This document shows positions 552 through 6,289 of a DNA stretch of 6,289 bases, in pieces. Source of the stretch: a virus (lineage: Duplodnaviria; Heunggongvirae; Uroviricota; Caudoviricetes); the IMG/VR virus record IMGVR_UViG_2548876949_000016; one strand, given 5' to 3'. The translations under genes were made by a program, and so were the position numbers. The notes under the pieces are model-generated. The model did no database searches, was not told the origin of the DNA, and saw only the letters and a list, made by a program, of their open reading frames with translations. Each line of letters begins with the position of its first letter. Positions within the stretch are counted from its first letter, which is position 1.

Positions 552-788
552 TCACCCACCTGAATTTCTTTCCAGCCAGCGACGCGCTCCAGATTCGGTT
601 TTAAACGTTTTGCTTTTGGTATACGTCATTGCGGTGAACGTACCGTACTGGTTGGGGAACACGCCACATACCAGAGATTCGCTGTTGCCAAGATCGATAG
701 TATCCATGCTGACCTCATTTCCCCTTAACGCCGGGGTAGCGGAACAAAAACCTGCTGCATAGTTATTAAAGTTGAACCCTGCCGTCAT
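552..788 (-). CDS. hypothetical small protein (78 aa), first gene of the leftward early operon
   Basis: ORF with ATG at 788..786 and a GAGG motif about 9 nt upstream on the minus strand; lies immediately downstream (leftward) of the OL-like operator region; no family recognised. Its last ~20 codons overlap an alternative open frame, so the true 3' end is uncertain. Confidence 0.45.
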   Translation of the reverse strand: MTAGFNFNNYAAGFCSATPALRGNEVSMDTIDLGNSESLVCGVFPNQYGTFTAMTYTKSKTFKTESGARRWLERNSGG

Positions 789-972: not shown

Positions 973-1392
973 CTATGATGCGTTTTGTGCTTTCTTTTTA
1001 CGGATTTCTTCGTAGATCATATTGTAATACTGTTTTTTCTCTTCAAGAGTTTTTAATAATTTATCCGCTTCACTTTCTGGCAGTTCGTCTAAGAGATCTA
1101 AAAAAATACGTTGTCGTGGCGTTAGAACCCTTGTTTCATAACTGGAGGCTGTGTTCGTTGATGATGAAACGATACCATCCATCCATCCCCGGGGTAACCC
1201 AAAGGACTCTTCGATAATCTCCACCATATCATCAGCGATCCGTTTTTTTCCCTTTTTCCCCTCTGGGTACAACATTCTTGATACATAAGAAGGCTCGCGC
1301 CCGATCTTTCTGGCCACGTTAACCGCTTTACCATCGCATTTCTCATCACGAATTTTGATGAGTTGCTGTCGTCTAAATTCATATTTGTCCAT
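973..1392 (-). CDS. CI-like prophage repressor (139 aa) with N-terminal helix-turn-helix and no LexA/S24 peptidase domain
   Basis: Divergent from the cro-like gene; N-terminal segment KAVNVARKIGREPSYVSRM looks like a classical HTH; AT-rich codon usage typical of immunity genes; C-terminal half is charged/coiled-coil-like with no Ser-Lys dyad or S24 fold signature; flanked by repeated operator palindromes. Confidence 0.75.
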   Translation of the reverse strand: MDKYEFRRQQLIKIRDEKCDGKAVNVARKIGREPSYVSRMLYPEGKKGKKRIADDMVEIIEESFGLPRGWMDGIVSSSTNTASSYETRVLTPRQRIFLDLLDELPESEADKLLKTLEEKKQYYNMIYEEIRKKKAQNAS

Positions 1393-1398
1393 AGGTAA

Positions 1399-1468
1399 AT
1401 AATAGATGCGATTACCGCAAGGTAAACAACCTGTGGGTATTGACTTTTGTTTACCTGTGGGTATTCTT
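1399..1468. promoter_or_regulatory. OR-like tripartite operator with divergent promoters (pRM-like leftward, pR-like rightward)
   Basis: Three operator copies: taccgcaaggta 1413..1424, aacctgtgggta 1428..1439, tacctgtgggta 1452..1463. Rightward promoter: -35 TTGACT 1440..1445, -10 TATTCT 1462..1467 (16-bp spacer; ATTCTT 1463..1468 with 17), overlapped by the 1452..1463 site, followed by SD AAGGAG 1482..1487 and ATG 1493. Leftward promoter candidate: -10 TATTAT (complement of 1399..1404) about 7 nt from the repressor ATG, with -35 overlapping the 1413..1424 site. Confidence 0.5.
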
Positions 1469-1492
1469 TGCTGTGTTTACTAAGGAGTAGCT

Positions 1493-1774
1493 ATGGAAGA
1501 ATTAAGAATATTTCTCAATTCTCTTTCGTCAGATGAACAGCGTATGTTTGCATGCGAGTGTGGTACCAGCATCGGTTATCTAAGAAAGGCATTGAGTAAA
1601 GGTCAAGTGTTAGGGGCATCGTTATGTGTCCTTATTGAGCGAGCCAGTAATGGTGAAGTTACACGTCAGCAACTAAGGCCTTTTGATTGGATGAATATTT
1701 GGCCCGAGCTGGAAGATACCAAAACGTTAACACAACCACTTTCTAGGAGCTTGATTCATGAAAATCAAGCATGA
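1493..1774 (+). CDS. Cro-like HTH regulator of the YdaS family (93 aa)
   Basis: First rightward gene after the operator/promoter region with strong SD AAGGAG; segment SLCVLIERASNGEVTRQQLRPFDW resembles the conserved core I recall for Rac YdaS-type Cro-like proteins; 3' end overlaps the next gene by 17 nt. Confidence 0.7.
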   Translation: MEELRIFLNSLSSDEQRMFACECGTSIGYLRKALSKGQVLGASLCVLIERASNGEVTRQQLRPFDWMNIWPELEDTKTLTQPLSRSLIHENQA

Positions 1775-2183
1775 ACACATCCGCATGGCGATGAATGCCT
1801 GGGCGCGTCCTGATGGCGAAAAAGTTCCAGCAGCTGGAATAACCCAGGCTTATTTTGAGTTGGGTATGACGTTCCCAGAACTGTATGACGACAGCCATCC
1901 GGAAGCCCTGGCTCGCAATACCCAGAAAATTTTCCGCTGGGTAGAGAAAGACACCCCTGATGCTGTTGAAAAAATGCAGGCTCTGTTACCGGCGATCGAA
2001 AAGGCGATGCCGCCTTTGCTGGTGGCCCGTATGCGCAGCCACAGTTCTGAATATTACCGTGAGATCGTCGAACGGAGGGATCGGCTGGTGAAGGATGTCG
2101 ATGATTTTGTTGCGTCAGCGGTTGTTTTGTATGACCAGATGAATCGCGGCGGCCCGGCAGGGAATGCTGTGGTGATGCACTAA
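1758..2183 (+). CDS. YdaT-like protein (141 aa); CII functional analogue / putative toxin-domain protein
   Basis: Position directly after the Cro-like gene as in Rac-type prophages; size (~140 aa); AGGAG SD 8 nt upstream of ATG 1758. Family assignment is from gene order and recalled similarity, not a search. Confidence 0.55.
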   Translation: MKIKHEHIRMAMNAWARPDGEKVPAAGITQAYFELGMTFPELYDDSHPEALARNTQKIFRWVEKDTPDAVEKMQALLPAIEKAMPPLLVARMRSHSSEYYREIVERRDRLVKDVDDFVASAVVLYDQMNRGGPAGNAVVMH

Positions 2184-2205
2184 AAGCACGGTGTTCGGGG
2201 GTTTT

Positions 2206-3168
2206 ATGAGCAGCAAGCTTCATGGTCTTGTCTGGGAAGGGTGCGCCTTCACCGGCATGATCTTATCCAGGGTGGCGGTTATGGCCCGTCTTGCAGACTA
2301 CAGCAATGACGAGGGCGTGTCATGGCCTGCCATTGAAACTATCCGGCGTCAGATCGGTGCAAGAAGTGAATCCACAGTGAAATCGGCTATTGCAGAACTG
2401 GCGAAAGAGGGCTGGCTGACGAAGGAAGAGCGTAAGGTCGGTGGGCGTAATGTAAGCAATATCTATCGGCTTAATGTGGAAAAACTCGAAGCAGCTGCGG
2501 CGGCGGCGCGTGAGTCATATAAACCGAAAAGAAAAATTAGCCCGGCAAAAAATGACCCGTTAACAGTTGACCCGTCAAATATTGACCCCTCAACGGTTGA
2601 CCCGTCAAATTTTGATGGATCAACTGTTGATAAAAAACTGCCGATTAGGGGGGCGATGATTGACCCCGATCCGTCAGTATTAAAACCTGATCCGTCAGAT
2701 AAAAGATCTTCTTGTCCGGACGCTTCGCAACCGGACCCGCAGACGGCTGAACAGGATTTTTTAACCCGACACCCTGACGCGGTTGTGTTCAGTGCGAAAA
2801 AACGCCAGTGGGGAAGTCAGGAAGATTTGGTGTGCGCACAGTGGATCTGGGGACGAATCGTGAGTCTTTACGAGCAGGCGGCCAGCTATGATGGCGAGAT
2901 CACTAGACCGAAAGAACCCAACTGGACAGCATGGGCCAATGACGTTCGCACAATGCGGATGCTGGATGGCAGAACTCACAGACAAATTTGTGAAATGTTT
3001 GGGCGTCTCCAGCGGGATTCGTTCTGGGTAAAAAACATCATGAGTCCGGCAAAACTCCGGGAAAAATGGGATGAACTGGTTATCCGCCTGGGGCGTTCGC
3101 CTGCGCAGCGTTGCGTGAATCACATTTCTGAACCGGACACTGAAATACCGCCGGGATTCAGGGGGTGA
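2206..3168 (+). CDS. phage replication initiation protein: N-terminal HTH origin-binding domain, repeat-rich linker, DnaT-like (primosomal protein 1) C-terminal domain
   Basis: ATG 2206 preceded by a GGGGGG SD (2196..2201); the track's GTG at 2191 is an alternative start. N-terminal region has HTH character (SWPAIETIRRQIGARSESTVKSAIAELAKEGWL). C-terminus ends SEPDTEIPPGFRG, matching my recollection of the E. coli DnaT C-terminus (SEPDSQIPPGFRG). Contains the iteron array and is immediately followed by a DnaC homologue. Confidence 0.7.
   Translation: MSSKLHGLVWEGCAFTGMILSRVAVMARLADYSNDEGVSWPAIETIRRQIGARSESTVKSAIAELAKEGWLTKEERKVGGRNVSNIYRLNVEKLEAAAAAARESYKPKRKISPAKNDPLTVDPSNIDPSTVDPSNFDGSTVDKKLPIRGAMIDPDPSVLKPDPSDKRSSCPDASQPDPQTAEQDFLTRHPDAVVFSAKKRQWGSQEDLVCAQWIWGRIVSLYEQAASYDGEITRPKEPNWTAWANDVRTMRMLDGRTHRQICEMFGRLQRDSFWVKNIMSPAKLREKWDELVIRLGRSPAQRCVNHISEPDTEIPPGFRG
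2551..2640. repeat. iteron array (putative prophage origin of replication) embedded in the initiator gene: six 15-bp units, four well conserved
   Basis: Units at 2551, 2566, 2581, 2596, 2611, 2626: aatgacccgttaaca / gttgacccgtcaaat / attgacccctcaacg / gttgacccgtcaaat / tttgatggatcaact / gttgataaaaaactg; units 2 and 4 are identical. A further ATTGACCCC copy at 2659..2667. Followed by AT-rich stretches and four GATC sites (2618, 2668, 2689, 2705). Confidence 0.55.
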
Positions 3169-3174
3169 CGTGTC

Positions 3175-3921
3175 ATGAAAAACATTGCGGCAGTTGGGGT
3201 TCTTGAACGTATTCGCAGACTTGCACCACAGGGGTCGGTTCCACCGTACCGGACGGTGGAGGAGTGGCGGGAATGGCAACTTGCTGAAGGACGAAAACGC
3301 AGCGAGGAGATTAACCGCCAGAATCGCCAGTTGCGGGTGGAAAAAATCCTGAATCGTTCGGGCATCCAGCCTCTGCACAGCAAATGCTCGTTTGCAAATT
3401 ATCAGGTGCAGAACGACGGGCAAAAATACGCGCTGAGCCAGGCCAAATCCATAGCTGACGAACTGATGACCGGGTGCACGAATTTTGTGTTCAGTGGTAA
3501 AACCGGCACCGGGAAAAATCACCTTGCAGCGGCGATGGGCAACCGGCTGATGGTGAAGGGGCGCAGCGTGATTATCGTCACCGTGTCTGACGTCATGAGC
3601 GTGTTGCATGACAGCTACGACAACGGCAAATCCGGGGAAAAATTTTTACAGGAGCTTTGCGGGGTTGATTTGCTGGTCCTGGATGAAATAGGCGTTCAGC
3701 GGGAGACGAAAAACGAGCAGGTGGTATTGCACCAGATAATTGATCGCCGGACAGCATCACTGTGCAGTGTCGGGATGTTAACAAACCTGAATCATGCCGC
3801 AATGAGTACGCTTCTTGGTGAGAGGATTATGGACCGCATGACCATGAACGGTGGTCGATGGGTGACGTTTAACTGGGATAGCTGGCGTCCAAATGTCAGC
3901 AATATGAGGGTTGTGAAGTAA
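3175..3921 (+). CDS. DnaC-like replicative helicase loader (AAA+ ATPase, 248 aa)
   Basis: Walker A FSGKTGTGKNHLAAA and Walker B LLVLDEIGVQ, plus overall collinearity with E. coli DnaC as I recall it (N-terminal MKN..., RSGIQPLH, MLTN, LLGERIMDRM, FNWDSWR). Start is 7 nt after the initiator stop, with a purine-rich SD. Confidence 0.85.
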   Translation: MKNIAAVGVLERIRRLAPQGSVPPYRTVEEWREWQLAEGRKRSEEINRQNRQLRVEKILNRSGIQPLHSKCSFANYQVQNDGQKYALSQAKSIADELMTGCTNFVFSGKTGTGKNHLAAAMGNRLMVKGRSVIIVTVSDVMSVLHDSYDNGKSGEKFLQELCGVDLLVLDEIGVQRETKNEQVVLHQIIDRRTASLCSVGMLTNLNHAAMSTLLGERIMDRMTMNGGRWVTFNWDSWRPNVSNMRVVK

Positions 3922-3942: not shown

Positions 3943-4713
3943 ATGGAAACCGTATCTGACGCACTGAAAGCACTGAAAAAAGCCTCTTCACATGTGGTGG
4001 CAGCTCGCCTTGGAATCAGTCGTGAAGAGGCTGTCAACGAGCTGTGGGAACTCAAAAGAAAAGGCGTCGTTGATAAAACTGGTCACACCTGGTTTCTGGC
4101 TGGCGAAGGTGAATCCCGGGTAACCGAAGAGCGGCCAGTAAAATCTGAAGCACAGGATATGCTGACCGGGGAGGTCGAACAAAAAGTTACCGCAGACATG
4201 ATGATTGAGTTTATCGGTCAGGATGGGGCTAAAACGTGTGAGGAACTGGCGGGTAAGTTCGGTGTCAGTACTCGCAAGGTTGCTTCCACGCTGGCGGTGG
4301 TAACCGCAACGGGGCGGCTGGCACGCGTTAATCAGAACGGTAAATTTCGTTACTGCATGCCGGGCGATAATTTACCAGCAGAGCCGAAAGCCGCGCTGGT
4401 AACGGAAAGTGATGGTAAGGCCTTTCCTCAGCCAGCAGGTGCTGCGTTACCAGTCCGGGAAGCCGCAACACAGGAAGAAATTAAAACAGAAACTGTGGCG
4501 GACATTGTGCAGCCGTTGCCATCGTTTACCGAAACGCAAGCAGATGAGCTGATTTTTCCGTCCCTTCGCAGGGCAAACCTGGCGCTGCGCAGGGCGAAAA
4601 GTGATGTTCAGAAGTGGGAGCGAGTCTGCGCCGCGCTGCGGGAGCTGAACAAGCACCGGGATATTGTTCGACAGATTACTGATTCTTCCCGCCGTGTTGT
4701 ATCGGAAAAGTGA
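3943..4713 (+). CDS. hypothetical protein (256 aa) with two tandem winged-helix-like modules, possibly DUF1627/YdaW-like
   Basis: GGAGGA SD 3930..3935, ATG 3943. Internal duplication visible in the translation: residues ~5-53 (VAARLGISREEAVNELWELKRKGVVDKTGHTWFL) and ~84-140 (CEELAGKFGVSTRKVASTLAVVTATGRLARVNQNGKFRYCM) both fit a winged-helix pattern; basic helical C-terminus. Follows the DnaC-like gene as ydaW does in Rac. Confidence 0.55.
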   Translation: METVSDALKALKKASSHVVAARLGISREEAVNELWELKRKGVVDKTGHTWFLAGEGESRVTEERPVKSEAQDMLTGEVEQKVTADMMIEFIGQDGAKTCEELAGKFGVSTRKVASTLAVVTATGRLARVNQNGKFRYCMPGDNLPAEPKAALVTESDGKAFPQPAGAALPVREAATQEEIKTETVADIVQPLPSFTETQADELIFPSLRRANLALRRAKSDVQKWERVCAALRELNKHRDIVRQITDSSRRVVSEK

Positions 4714-4728
4714 TTGCCGGAGGCGCTT

Positions 4729-5154
4729 ATGGCAAAAGTATTTACACAAGAAGAGCGGGAAAAAATTAAAGGGCAGGTTGTTGAACTTGTACGTCTGAGC
4801 GGTCGCGAGACGTTGCGGCAACTGGAAGCCAAGACAGGTGCGACAAGATATCTGATGAGTGTTCTCGCCAGAGAGCTGGTTGCCAGTGGCGATGTATACA
4901 ACTCTGGTTACGGGTTATTCCCGTCTGAACAGGCGCGTAAGGACTGGCAAAATGCTCGCAAAAAACTCTCAAGGGCAAAGGTGAAGAAACCTGCAGTGGT
5001 TGATCCGGACCTTATCTGGTCGTTACCAGACGGCGAAATACGCCGCTACGACAGGCGCCTGAATATAATCTGTCGCGAGTGCCGGAAGAGCGAAGCTATG
5101 CAGCGTGTACTGGCATTTTATCAAGGAAATGTTAGGTATTTTAGACGTTACTAG
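4729..5154 (+). CDS. hypothetical protein (141 aa from ATG 4729) with one winged-helix-like module and a basic Cys-containing C-terminus
   Basis: GGAGG SD 4719..4723, 5 nt before ATG 4729; the track's 4714 start is an in-frame TTG just after the upstream stop. Segment VVELVRLSGRETLRQLEAKTGATRYLMSVLARELVASGDV has winged-helix character; no family recognised. Confidence 0.5.
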   Translation: MAKVFTQEEREKIKGQVVELVRLSGRETLRQLEAKTGATRYLMSVLARELVASGDVYNSGYGLFPSEQARKDWQNARKKLSRAKVKKPAVVDPDLIWSLPDGEIRRYDRRLNIICRECRKSEAMQRVLAFYQGNVRYFRRY

Positions 5155-5307
5155 ATTAAAGAGCATTAGTTCAGATGTGAATTGACATTTTCATGGCGCA
5201 GGGTAGAGCCAGCGTGGTTGTCCGCTTTGCGTCAAAACCAGATATTACCAGATTTAGACATATATTCCCGATAGCCCTGCTCTGATGCTACACTCTGTGC
5301 TATTTTC

Positions 5308-5994
5308 ATGACCCCAATAAAAATATTTATGACTATTGCTGATTTCAAACGGCCTAAATTGGAGCTCCCAAACGGGGCAAACAAACTACTACTGCACTCT
5401 TGCTGTGCTCCATGTTCCGGTGAAGTGATGGAGGCGCTTCAGGCCTCGGGAATCGACTACACCATCTTTTTCTACAACCCGAACATTCATCCTCAGAAAG
5501 AGTATTTAATTCGTAAGGATGAAAATATTCGCTTTGCTGAACAACACGGCGTGCCGTTTATCGATGCTGATTACGACACCGACAACTGGTTTGAACGTGC
5601 CAAAGGAATGGAATGGGAGCCTGAGAGGGGGATCCGTTGTACCATGTGTTTTGACATGCGTTTTGAGCGGACAGCGTTGTACGCTGCTGAAAATGGTTTC
5701 AGTGTGATCAGCAGTTCACTGGGCATTTCACGCTGGAAAAATATGCAGCAGGTTAACGAGTGTGGGCGGCGAGCTGTTGCGCATTATCCGGGTATGGTGT
5801 ACTGGGATTATAACTGGCGCAAGCAGGGCGGCTCGTCCCGTATGATTGAAATCAGCAAGCGCGAAAAATTCTATCAGCAGGAATATTGTGGCTGTGTGTA
5901 TTCTCTGCGCGATACCAATCTACACCGCAAATCTCAGGGACGCCCTCTTATCAAAATTGGCCAACTCCACTACGGAAAAGAAGAGAAGGAGTGA
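5308..5994 (+). CDS. queH: QueH-like epoxyqueuosine reductase (DUF208 family, 228 aa), prophage cargo
   Basis: Three cysteine motifs that I recall as the QueH/DUF208 signature: [11 protein letters not shown] (nt ~5389..5421), [10 protein letters not shown] (~5638..5667) and EYCGCVYS (~5881..5904). Separated from the upstream gene by a 153-bp gap containing TTGACA at 5182..5187. No convincing Shine-Dalgarno before ATG 5308 or the alternative ATG 5329, so the start is uncertain. Confidence 0.6.
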
Positions 5995-6289
5995 TTTTAT
6001 GGATCACCTTTCTGATTGATTTCATATTGGCGAGGTGACGTGAGTTAAGTAGAATGGCTGCGGGTGCTTGAGGCTATCTGTCTCAGGCATGAACACTGAA
6101 AGGCAGATAGAGAAAAGCCCCAGTTAACATTTCGCGTCCTGCAAGACGCTTAACATTAATCTGAGGCCCAATCTATGTCTCACAAATGTAGGTTAGCCTC
6201 TTACGTGCCGAAAGGCAAGGGGAAGCAGGCTATTGTTAACACCAAGCTGTAATGTCCCCTTTGAACCATTCTAAAATGTCCCCAGACAA

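Follow-up and report, generated by a model that had tools for sequence, protein, structure and literature searches.

The question raised by this locus is why a lambdoid prophage should carry a gene for the completion of queuosine (Q) in tRNA when its host already possesses an enzyme for that step. The window analysed here is the whole of a 6,289-nucleotide stretch of Caudoviricetes DNA (IMG/VR record IMGVR_UViG_2548876949_000016), in which the initial annotation recognised a QueH-like epoxyqueuosine reductase carried as cargo in a prophage early region. De novo synthesis of B12 is impossible for E. coli. The full Q pathway is established in this organism (PMC5372724), where QueG/YjeS and cobalamin are both needed for the conversion of epoxyqueuosine (oQ) to Q (PMC4646009). 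QueH can take the place of QueG without being its orthologue and without requiring a cobamide (PMC5372724; PMC10378866), and the two enzymes co-occur in streptococci (PMC12632869). A 2019 survey of viral 7-deazaguanine genes reported no homologues of QueA, QueG or QueH (PMC6884629). Sequence, fold and genomic context now agree that the window gene is a QueH-family member carried as prophage cargo, and together they suggest what it may do there.

An intact QueH-family protein

The window contains a 228-aa open reading frame at 5308-5994 on the plus strand. Searched against Pfam, it scores 221.5 bits with PF02677 (QueH), for which the cutoff is 23.5. The match covers positions 1-174 of the 175 in the profile, and the E value of 1.1e-65 excludes a chance match. 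The cysteine signature on which the initial annotation had based its assignment is complete. In the numbering of the 228-aa frame, HSCCAPCS occupies residues 30-37, the CxxC element (CTMC) residues 111-114 and CGC residues 194-196. Seven of the eight cysteines of the protein (Cys32, 33, 36, 111, 114, 194 and 196, which include every motif cysteine) are invariant among 31 homologues, and the eighth, C152, is nearly so. The HSCCAPCS, RCxxC and YCGC motifs are also found in S. aureus and gut-contig homologues of 35-50% identity, and the cysteines of CCAPC, CxxC and CGC are the presumed ligands of an Fe-S cluster or metal.

The predicted structure leads to the same family. An AlphaFold2 model of the window protein, built from a 31-sequence alignment (pLDDT 76.8, pTM 0.77), has Thermotoga maritima QueH (PDB 7lc5) as its best Foldseek match in the PDB, with an E value of 3.5e-11, a target-normalised TM score of 0.86 and an rmsd of 2.4 Å over 180 columns. 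The next matches are TtuA-type and other adenine-nucleotide alpha-hydrolase folds, with E values about six orders of magnitude weaker. T. maritima QueH is also a phmmer match of the protein (E 7.8e-22). The profile search and the fold comparison through which the initial annotation could be checked thus both uphold it, and the gene is an intact, full-length and ordinary member of the QueH family.

The comparison with T. maritima QueH (IPR003828, DUF208, PF02677) also shows where the two proteins part. They share the full-length profile, the cysteine motifs and the predicted fold, and the reaction, oQ to Q on tRNA, is expected to be alike, but they are only ~30% identical. The T. maritima protein has Asp13 in a CCAPD motif, whereas the window protein has Cys36 in the canonical CCAPC. 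PDB entries include T. maritima QueH mutants C9S and D13N, at positions equivalent to the window motif. The window protein is further distinguished from its T. maritima counterpart by a conserved basic tail that extends its C terminus past the Pfam domain, and by being prophage-encoded in a host with a QueG of its own. The tail, at about residues 202-222 of the 228-aa frame (about 5911-5973), includes R207, R212, I215, G218 and Y222, which are invariant among gammaproteobacterial homologues. Neither one gut-contig homologue (L095) nor the T. maritima chain (192 residues), as far as the latter aligns, shows a counterpart. The tail may provide an additional contact with tRNA, although the confidence of the model is low in this region.

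No NCBIfam model matches the protein at E ≤ 0.01, and RefSeq still names the identical protein QueH, so this name must rest on other evidence; the NCBIfam library appears to lack a QueH model.

Gene start and upstream element

The frame of the gene and its end at 5994 stand as first annotated, but the start at 5308 almost certainly does not. The following features, all on the plus strand, describe the gene and its immediate surroundings.

5264-6001, plus strand: queH cassette common to the prophage and a Klebsiella IncF plasmid (blastn against plasmid locus L009, 82.7%)
5282-5293, plus strand: invariant 12-nt motif CTGATGCTACAC, a candidate extended -10 promoter, from the alignment of mobile copies
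5308-5328, plus strand: in-frame upstream extension, probably 5' untranslated, its ATG and residues not being conserved
5329-5994, plus strand: queH coding sequence, 221 aa plus stop, from PF02677, the 7lc5 match, the predicted fold and the conserved ATG

The position of ATG 5308 reads CATT in both the Klebsiella IncF copy (L009) and a prophage copy from E. coli O7:H15 (L012). The seven residues encoded by 5308-5328 vary freely from copy to copy, for example MTPIKIF in the window against MNLINTF in HannyBb, a phage. By contrast, ATG 5329 and everything downstream of it are kept in all mobile copies compared, and RefSeq uses the equivalent start, giving the 221-aa form. As only the second ATG is conserved and is also the RefSeq start, the gene most likely spans 5329-5994; on these comparisons the true start is almost certainly ATG 5329, a shift of 21 nt from 5308, with a product of 221 aa.

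The motif CTGATGCTACAC sits 36-47 nt 5' of ATG 5329. It is identical in five independent copies from prophages, a phage and an IncF plasmid, while the flanking sequence diverges; a sixth copy, from E. coli O104:H4, is the same as the window throughout this stretch and is counted apart from the independent five. The motif was not found 5' of chromosomal queH in Providencia or Photorhabdus. Its region can be read as TG-n-TACACT (5286-5294), which resembles an extended -10 element. In the O7:H15 copy the last base of the hexamer, which directly follows the 12-mer, is A instead of T, and this copy is therefore a weaker match to a -10.

Whether queH has a promoter of its own bears on when it would be expressed. 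By consensus scan neither a sigma-70 promoter nor an intrinsic terminator was called in the sequence flanking queH, and the scan did not call the conserved element either. With neither found, expression of queH may depend wholly on the early-right operon of the phage, and so begin on induction and be lacking in lysogens. On the IncF plasmid, PLSDB, whose gene table is incomplete, places no gene between repA and queH. The plasmid copy has no phage promoter to lean on, which makes a promoter of its own plausible, and the conserved element is a plausible candidate for an autonomous promoter of queH.

A preQ1-type riboswitch was also considered for the upstream region, as GCTACAC followed by an A-rich tail is reminiscent of the preQ1-I class. 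It was rejected since Rfam and folding were both null: Rfam gave no relevant match at E ≤ 10 in 5200-5360, and the folding z-score of the upstream leader (-0.42) carries no signal of a stable structure.

Chromosomal relatives and selection

QueH proteins of other Enterobacterales and Gammaproteobacteria are 75-86% identical in amino acid sequence to the window protein. In Providencia the chromosomal gene (~84% identity) lies among tmcA, purC, dapA and bamC, a housekeeping neighbourhood, and in Photorhabdus a 79% identical QueH is encoded in a chromosomal, non-prophage setting. The statement in the initial annotation that enterobacteria normally use QueG thus holds for E. coli but not for the whole order. 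These chromosomal proteins, with matches also named Erwinia, Proteus and Gibbsiella, belong to the same length class as the mobile one (211-241 aa). They differ in that the Providencia and Photorhabdus genes occupy housekeeping or otherwise non-prophage chromosomal sites and are without CTGATGCTACAC, which the mobile copies have.

Pairwise Nei-Gojobori comparisons among five mobile copies (those of the window, HannyBb and the Klebsiella plasmid, and two further alleles from E. coli prophages) give dN/dS of 0.03-0.06 at dS from 0.27 to about 1.5. Values this low at such high dS imply long and strong purifying selection on QueH while it has been mobile. Reduction of oQ and binding of a [4Fe-4S] cluster by the window protein are predicted from the ~84% identity to housekeeping QueH together with these dN/dS values, and the same comparisons give no sign that the mobile enzyme would differ in activity from its housekeeping relatives.

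The early region of a Rac/Qin-like prophage

The window is confirmed as the early region of a Rac/Qin-like lambdoid prophage by the following features.

552-788, minus strand: DUF1391 gene
973-1392, minus strand: DicA-like repressor (Pfam/NCBIfam)
1493-1774, plus strand: YdaS-like gene (Pfam/NCBIfam)
1758-2183, plus strand: YdaT-like gene (Pfam/NCBIfam)
2191-3168, plus strand: O/YdaU-like replication protein (Pfam/NCBIfam)
3175-3921, plus strand: DnaC-like helicase loader (NCBIfam PRK12377, 506 bits)
973-3921, both strands: the immunity and replication module, which defines the early-region context and has the order of the annotated O104:H4 prophage
3943-4713: DUF1627 gene
4714-5154, plus strand: left flank of queH, a DUF977/Ren-like exclusion protein (Pfam DUF977, 97.7 bits; PHROG 142, 158 bits)
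5997-6233, plus strand: right flank of queH, a hok/sok type I toxin-antitoxin leader (Rfam RF01794, 115.6 bits; sok model at 6062-6234)

No tRNA genes were found in the window. An identical queH is present in E. coli O104:H4 FDAARGOS_349 within a complete prophage adjoining ompW, which has integrase, exonuclease, dicB, Q, lysis, terminase and capsid genes.

This fully annotated carrier bears directly on a suggestion of the initial annotation, that the substrate of the enzyme might be a 7-deazaguanine derivative in DNA and not one in tRNA. Such bases are known in phage DNA (PMC6884629). The DpdA-type systems responsible have their own transglycosylase and preQ0 genes, and neither the window nor the O104:H4 prophage holds a DpdA/TGT-like transglycosylase, QueA or a preQ0-synthesis gene. 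The partner genes for a DNA substrate are thus absent from both, the same queH is found on plasmids that are not phage-derived, and the protein is near-identical (~84% to that of Providencia) to housekeeping tRNA enzymes. We know of no report of epoxyqueuosine in DNA. Activity on DNA is accordingly extremely improbable, and host tRNA is the substrate that we favour.

At the right-hand end, the window is homologous from 5997 on with the hok loci of mEp460, Tritos and 933W, and the hok coding sequence lies outside the window; in O104:H4, hokD would begin at about 6232. The window departs from the hok locus at 6233/6234, just where hokD would begin in other genomes, so that the hok coding sequence is missing and only the sok/hok leader is left. 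The tail beyond this point (6234-6289) is a sequence present in about 780 genomes. In E. coli E2865 its match belongs to a Qin-like prophage and lies immediately 5' of a fragment annotated as 'IS1202-like ISEsa1 family transposase'. Phage PhiR42_1 matches the window over 6043-6289. The 6233/6234 junction occurs together with queH in no complete E. coli genome and in none of the retrieved IMG/VR loci. In E2865 (L011, 6619-7075) DUF977 runs straight into the hok leader, of which just the final 29 nt are left, followed by the IS-adjacent DNA; in window coordinates, 4707-5088 is joined to 6205-6289. Nothing there corresponds to 5089-6204, which comprises queH, the 3' end of DUF977 and most of the hok leader. 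This arrangement appears to derive from a window-like prophage by deletion.

A variable slot and a mobile cassette

Related phages show that queH occupies a fixed position of variable content. The phages mEp460_ev081 and Tritos share with the window the DUF977 gene plus 80-90 nt 3' of it (4726 to about 5235-5246) and the segment 5997-6233, and between these flanks each carries a different gene of ~445 aa on the reverse strand. The gene in mEp460_ev081 (L003, 1642-2991, minus strand) is PD-T7-1 by PADLOC (521.5 bits); that in Tritos (L004, 1599-2933, minus strand) encodes a PDC-S15 candidate defence protein with an FRG domain. With a defence gene in the one and a candidate defence gene in the other, the site between the Ren-like gene and hok is an accessory or defence hotspot. 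The presence or absence of queH at this slot, between conserved flanks, is polymorphic among related phages, and 80 IMG/VR loci that encode an identical QueH keep the block 4719-6233 (DUF977, queH and the hok leader) constant, whereas the replication module upstream is mosaic. The DNA shared with the Klebsiella plasmid, 5264-6001, indicates that the mobile unit is the gene with about 65 nt upstream. The queH gene is hence accessory cargo, a cassette of roughly 740 bp in a variable slot between the replication/Ren-like genes and hok/nin.

This cassette resembles the moron or defence cargo of lambdoid phages, such as PD-T7-1 of mEp460, in sharing slot and flanks and in being variably present among related phages. 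It differs from such cargo in encoding a metabolic tRNA-modification enzyme, rather than a recognised defence protein, on the strand of the early operon, and in that the consensus scan found no terminator flanking it.

Two further arrangements were observed around the gene. In E. coli O7:H15 ST70 (L012, 5009-5677) queH lies between a small ORF on the reverse strand and a DUF1971 gene, with no hok beside it, and the allele encodes C152S and I109R. In HannyBb (L002, 5856-6062) and E. coli 95-3322 (L013, 4726-4911) a truncated methyltransferase fragment lies between DUF977 and queH, and looks like the remnant of an earlier occupant of the slot.

The company that queH keeps raises the possibility of a function in conflict between phages or between phage and host. 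A B12-independent state of the tRNA could protect or sensitise tRNAs with QUN anticodons with respect to a tRNA-targeting toxin or defence system, or could exclude superinfecting phages. As the other occupants of the slot are defence genes (PD-T7-1 in mEp460, the PDC-S15/FRG candidate in Tritos), there is room for such a role, and the neighbours are a Ren-like exclusion protein and a hok/sok module. Set against this, PADLOC has no match for QueH, nor for DUF977; the ~84% identity to housekeeping chromosomal QueH gives no hint of an altered activity; queH is also found on IncF plasmids, away from phage context; and we know of no system that tells oQ from Q apart. We consider a function in conflict unlikely and regard queH primarily as a metabolic gene.

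Distribution in genomes, plasmids and phages

By megablast, queH is present in 995 of 5,426 complete E. coli genomes, about 18%, which is a lower bound for carriage as the search saw only three E. coli plasmid places. It is nearly always single-copy and chromosomal, with the RefSeq name 'epoxyqueuosine reductase QueH' in every one of the matches listed, and at least 80% of the gene is present in 985 of the 995 carriers. The initial annotation regarded it as an unusual function for an early region. Its status as cargo stands, but a gene so common and already named by RefSeq in these 995 genomes is hardly an oddity. All 5,426 genomes possess queG, so every E. coli queH carrier has both enzymes and the redundancy with QueG that had been proposed is borne out.

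Plasmids are a second vehicle. Relatives of queH are found by tblastn on 302 plasmid records, 99 from Klebsiella and 67 from Escherichia. On a conjugative IncF plasmid of K. pneumoniae FDAARGOS_775 (L009, 7004-7672) queH lies 1.2 kb 3' of IncFII repA and outside any phage context, and its product is 92% identical to the window protein.

Formal redundancy with an ever-present queG, together with the movement of block 4719-6233 as one through many mosaic prophages, might suggest that queH is a neutral hitch-hiker linked to a successful DUF977-hok block and spread by prophages with no benefit to phage or host. A gene of this kind is at odds with dN/dS of 0.03-0.06 at dS of 0.3-1.5, which reflects long-term purifying selection, with the retention of at least 80% of the gene in 985 of 995 carrier genomes, and with its persistence on plasmids in another genus. 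We therefore judge neutral carriage very unlikely, and a maintained enzymatic function is preferred.

In viral collections, QueH relatives are encoded in at least 191 IMG/VR contigs, and the protein matches the PHROGs family phrog_3217 at 459.7 bits. Among deposited phage genomes a close copy is found only in that of HannyBb, the one cultured phage with the gene (PP925841.1, 33011-33697; L002, 6095-6781). The remaining tblastn matches of QueH among phage records come from unverified entries, such as unannotated human faecal contigs and assemblies of 280-380 kb named 'Acinetobacter phage MD-2021a' and 'Staphylococcus phage SA 1306 Kay'. These may be bacterial rather than phage DNA and are consequently no proof of a wide distribution of QueH in phages.

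Neither the enzyme family, nor its reaction, nor this exact protein is new, and RefSeq already gives the protein its correct name. Phage resources lag behind, as phrog_3217 is labelled 'unknown function' and the HannyBb gene hypothetical. The practical gain is small: these resources could pass the QueH name to phrog_3217. The mobile context of queH is a modest new point, apparently undescribed in phage resources and in the searchable literature. Full-text searches of the literature gave no account of queH carried by prophages or plasmids of Enterobacteriaceae that have QueG, although the searches were limited and their silence is weak evidence.

A proposed route to queuosine without B12

The evidence is best accommodated by a model in which the window gene encodes a working B12-independent oQ reductase that acts on host tRNA, and we consider it likely that queH is an accessory cassette which gives the lysogen or infected cell Q without B12. 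QueH would function as an iron-sulfur, cobalamin-independent epoxyqueuosine reductase, turning oQ into Q at position 34 of tRNA-Asn, -Asp, -His and -Tyr. QueG performs the same reaction on the same substrate and is present in every queH-carrying E. coli genome, but it is non-orthologous and B12-dependent, with another fold and other cofactors (PMC4646009; PMC5372724). In E. coli, QueG, although always present, would be limited by the cobamides that must be imported, and queH thus offers a B12-independent completion of Q. With the cassette, a lysogen or infected cell could complete Q without B12, and the same cassette circulates on IncF plasmids. We infer an active enzyme, a tRNA substrate, expression from the gene's own promoter and a benefit under B12 limitation.

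How Q rather than oQ would profit the cell is a separate matter. Tuning of NAU/NAC decoding, which the initial annotation envisaged, finds no support in codon usage. The ratio NAU/(NAU+NAC) stands at 0.59 for the late genes of the prophage and 0.54 for its early genes, and two small sets of host genes give 0.53-0.63; this crude count addresses G versus Q and not oQ versus Q. To our knowledge no phenotype of oQ versus Q has been reported, which leaves the selective benefit of queH hypothetical.

A broader reading, which we put forward tentatively and hold to be possible rather than probable, unites these observations. Here a single, old queH cassette, under purifying selection and with a conserved upstream element of its own, would circulate among Enterobacteriaceae that have QueG but are auxotrophic for B12, carried by their lambdoid prophages and IncF plasmids. 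As a mobile factor in fitness or conflict, it would free the completion of Q from dependence on the cobamide supply of the gut. The ecological angle is that of a mobile B12-independent gene for Q maturation situated in a defence and accessory hotspot. If correct, queH would be the first auxiliary phage gene known for the tRNA-specific part of the Q pathway, and would provide a natural system for learning what oQ versus Q does. Should the B12-independent route matter to the cell, natural strains with and without queH would represent a ready test of oQ versus Q physiology.
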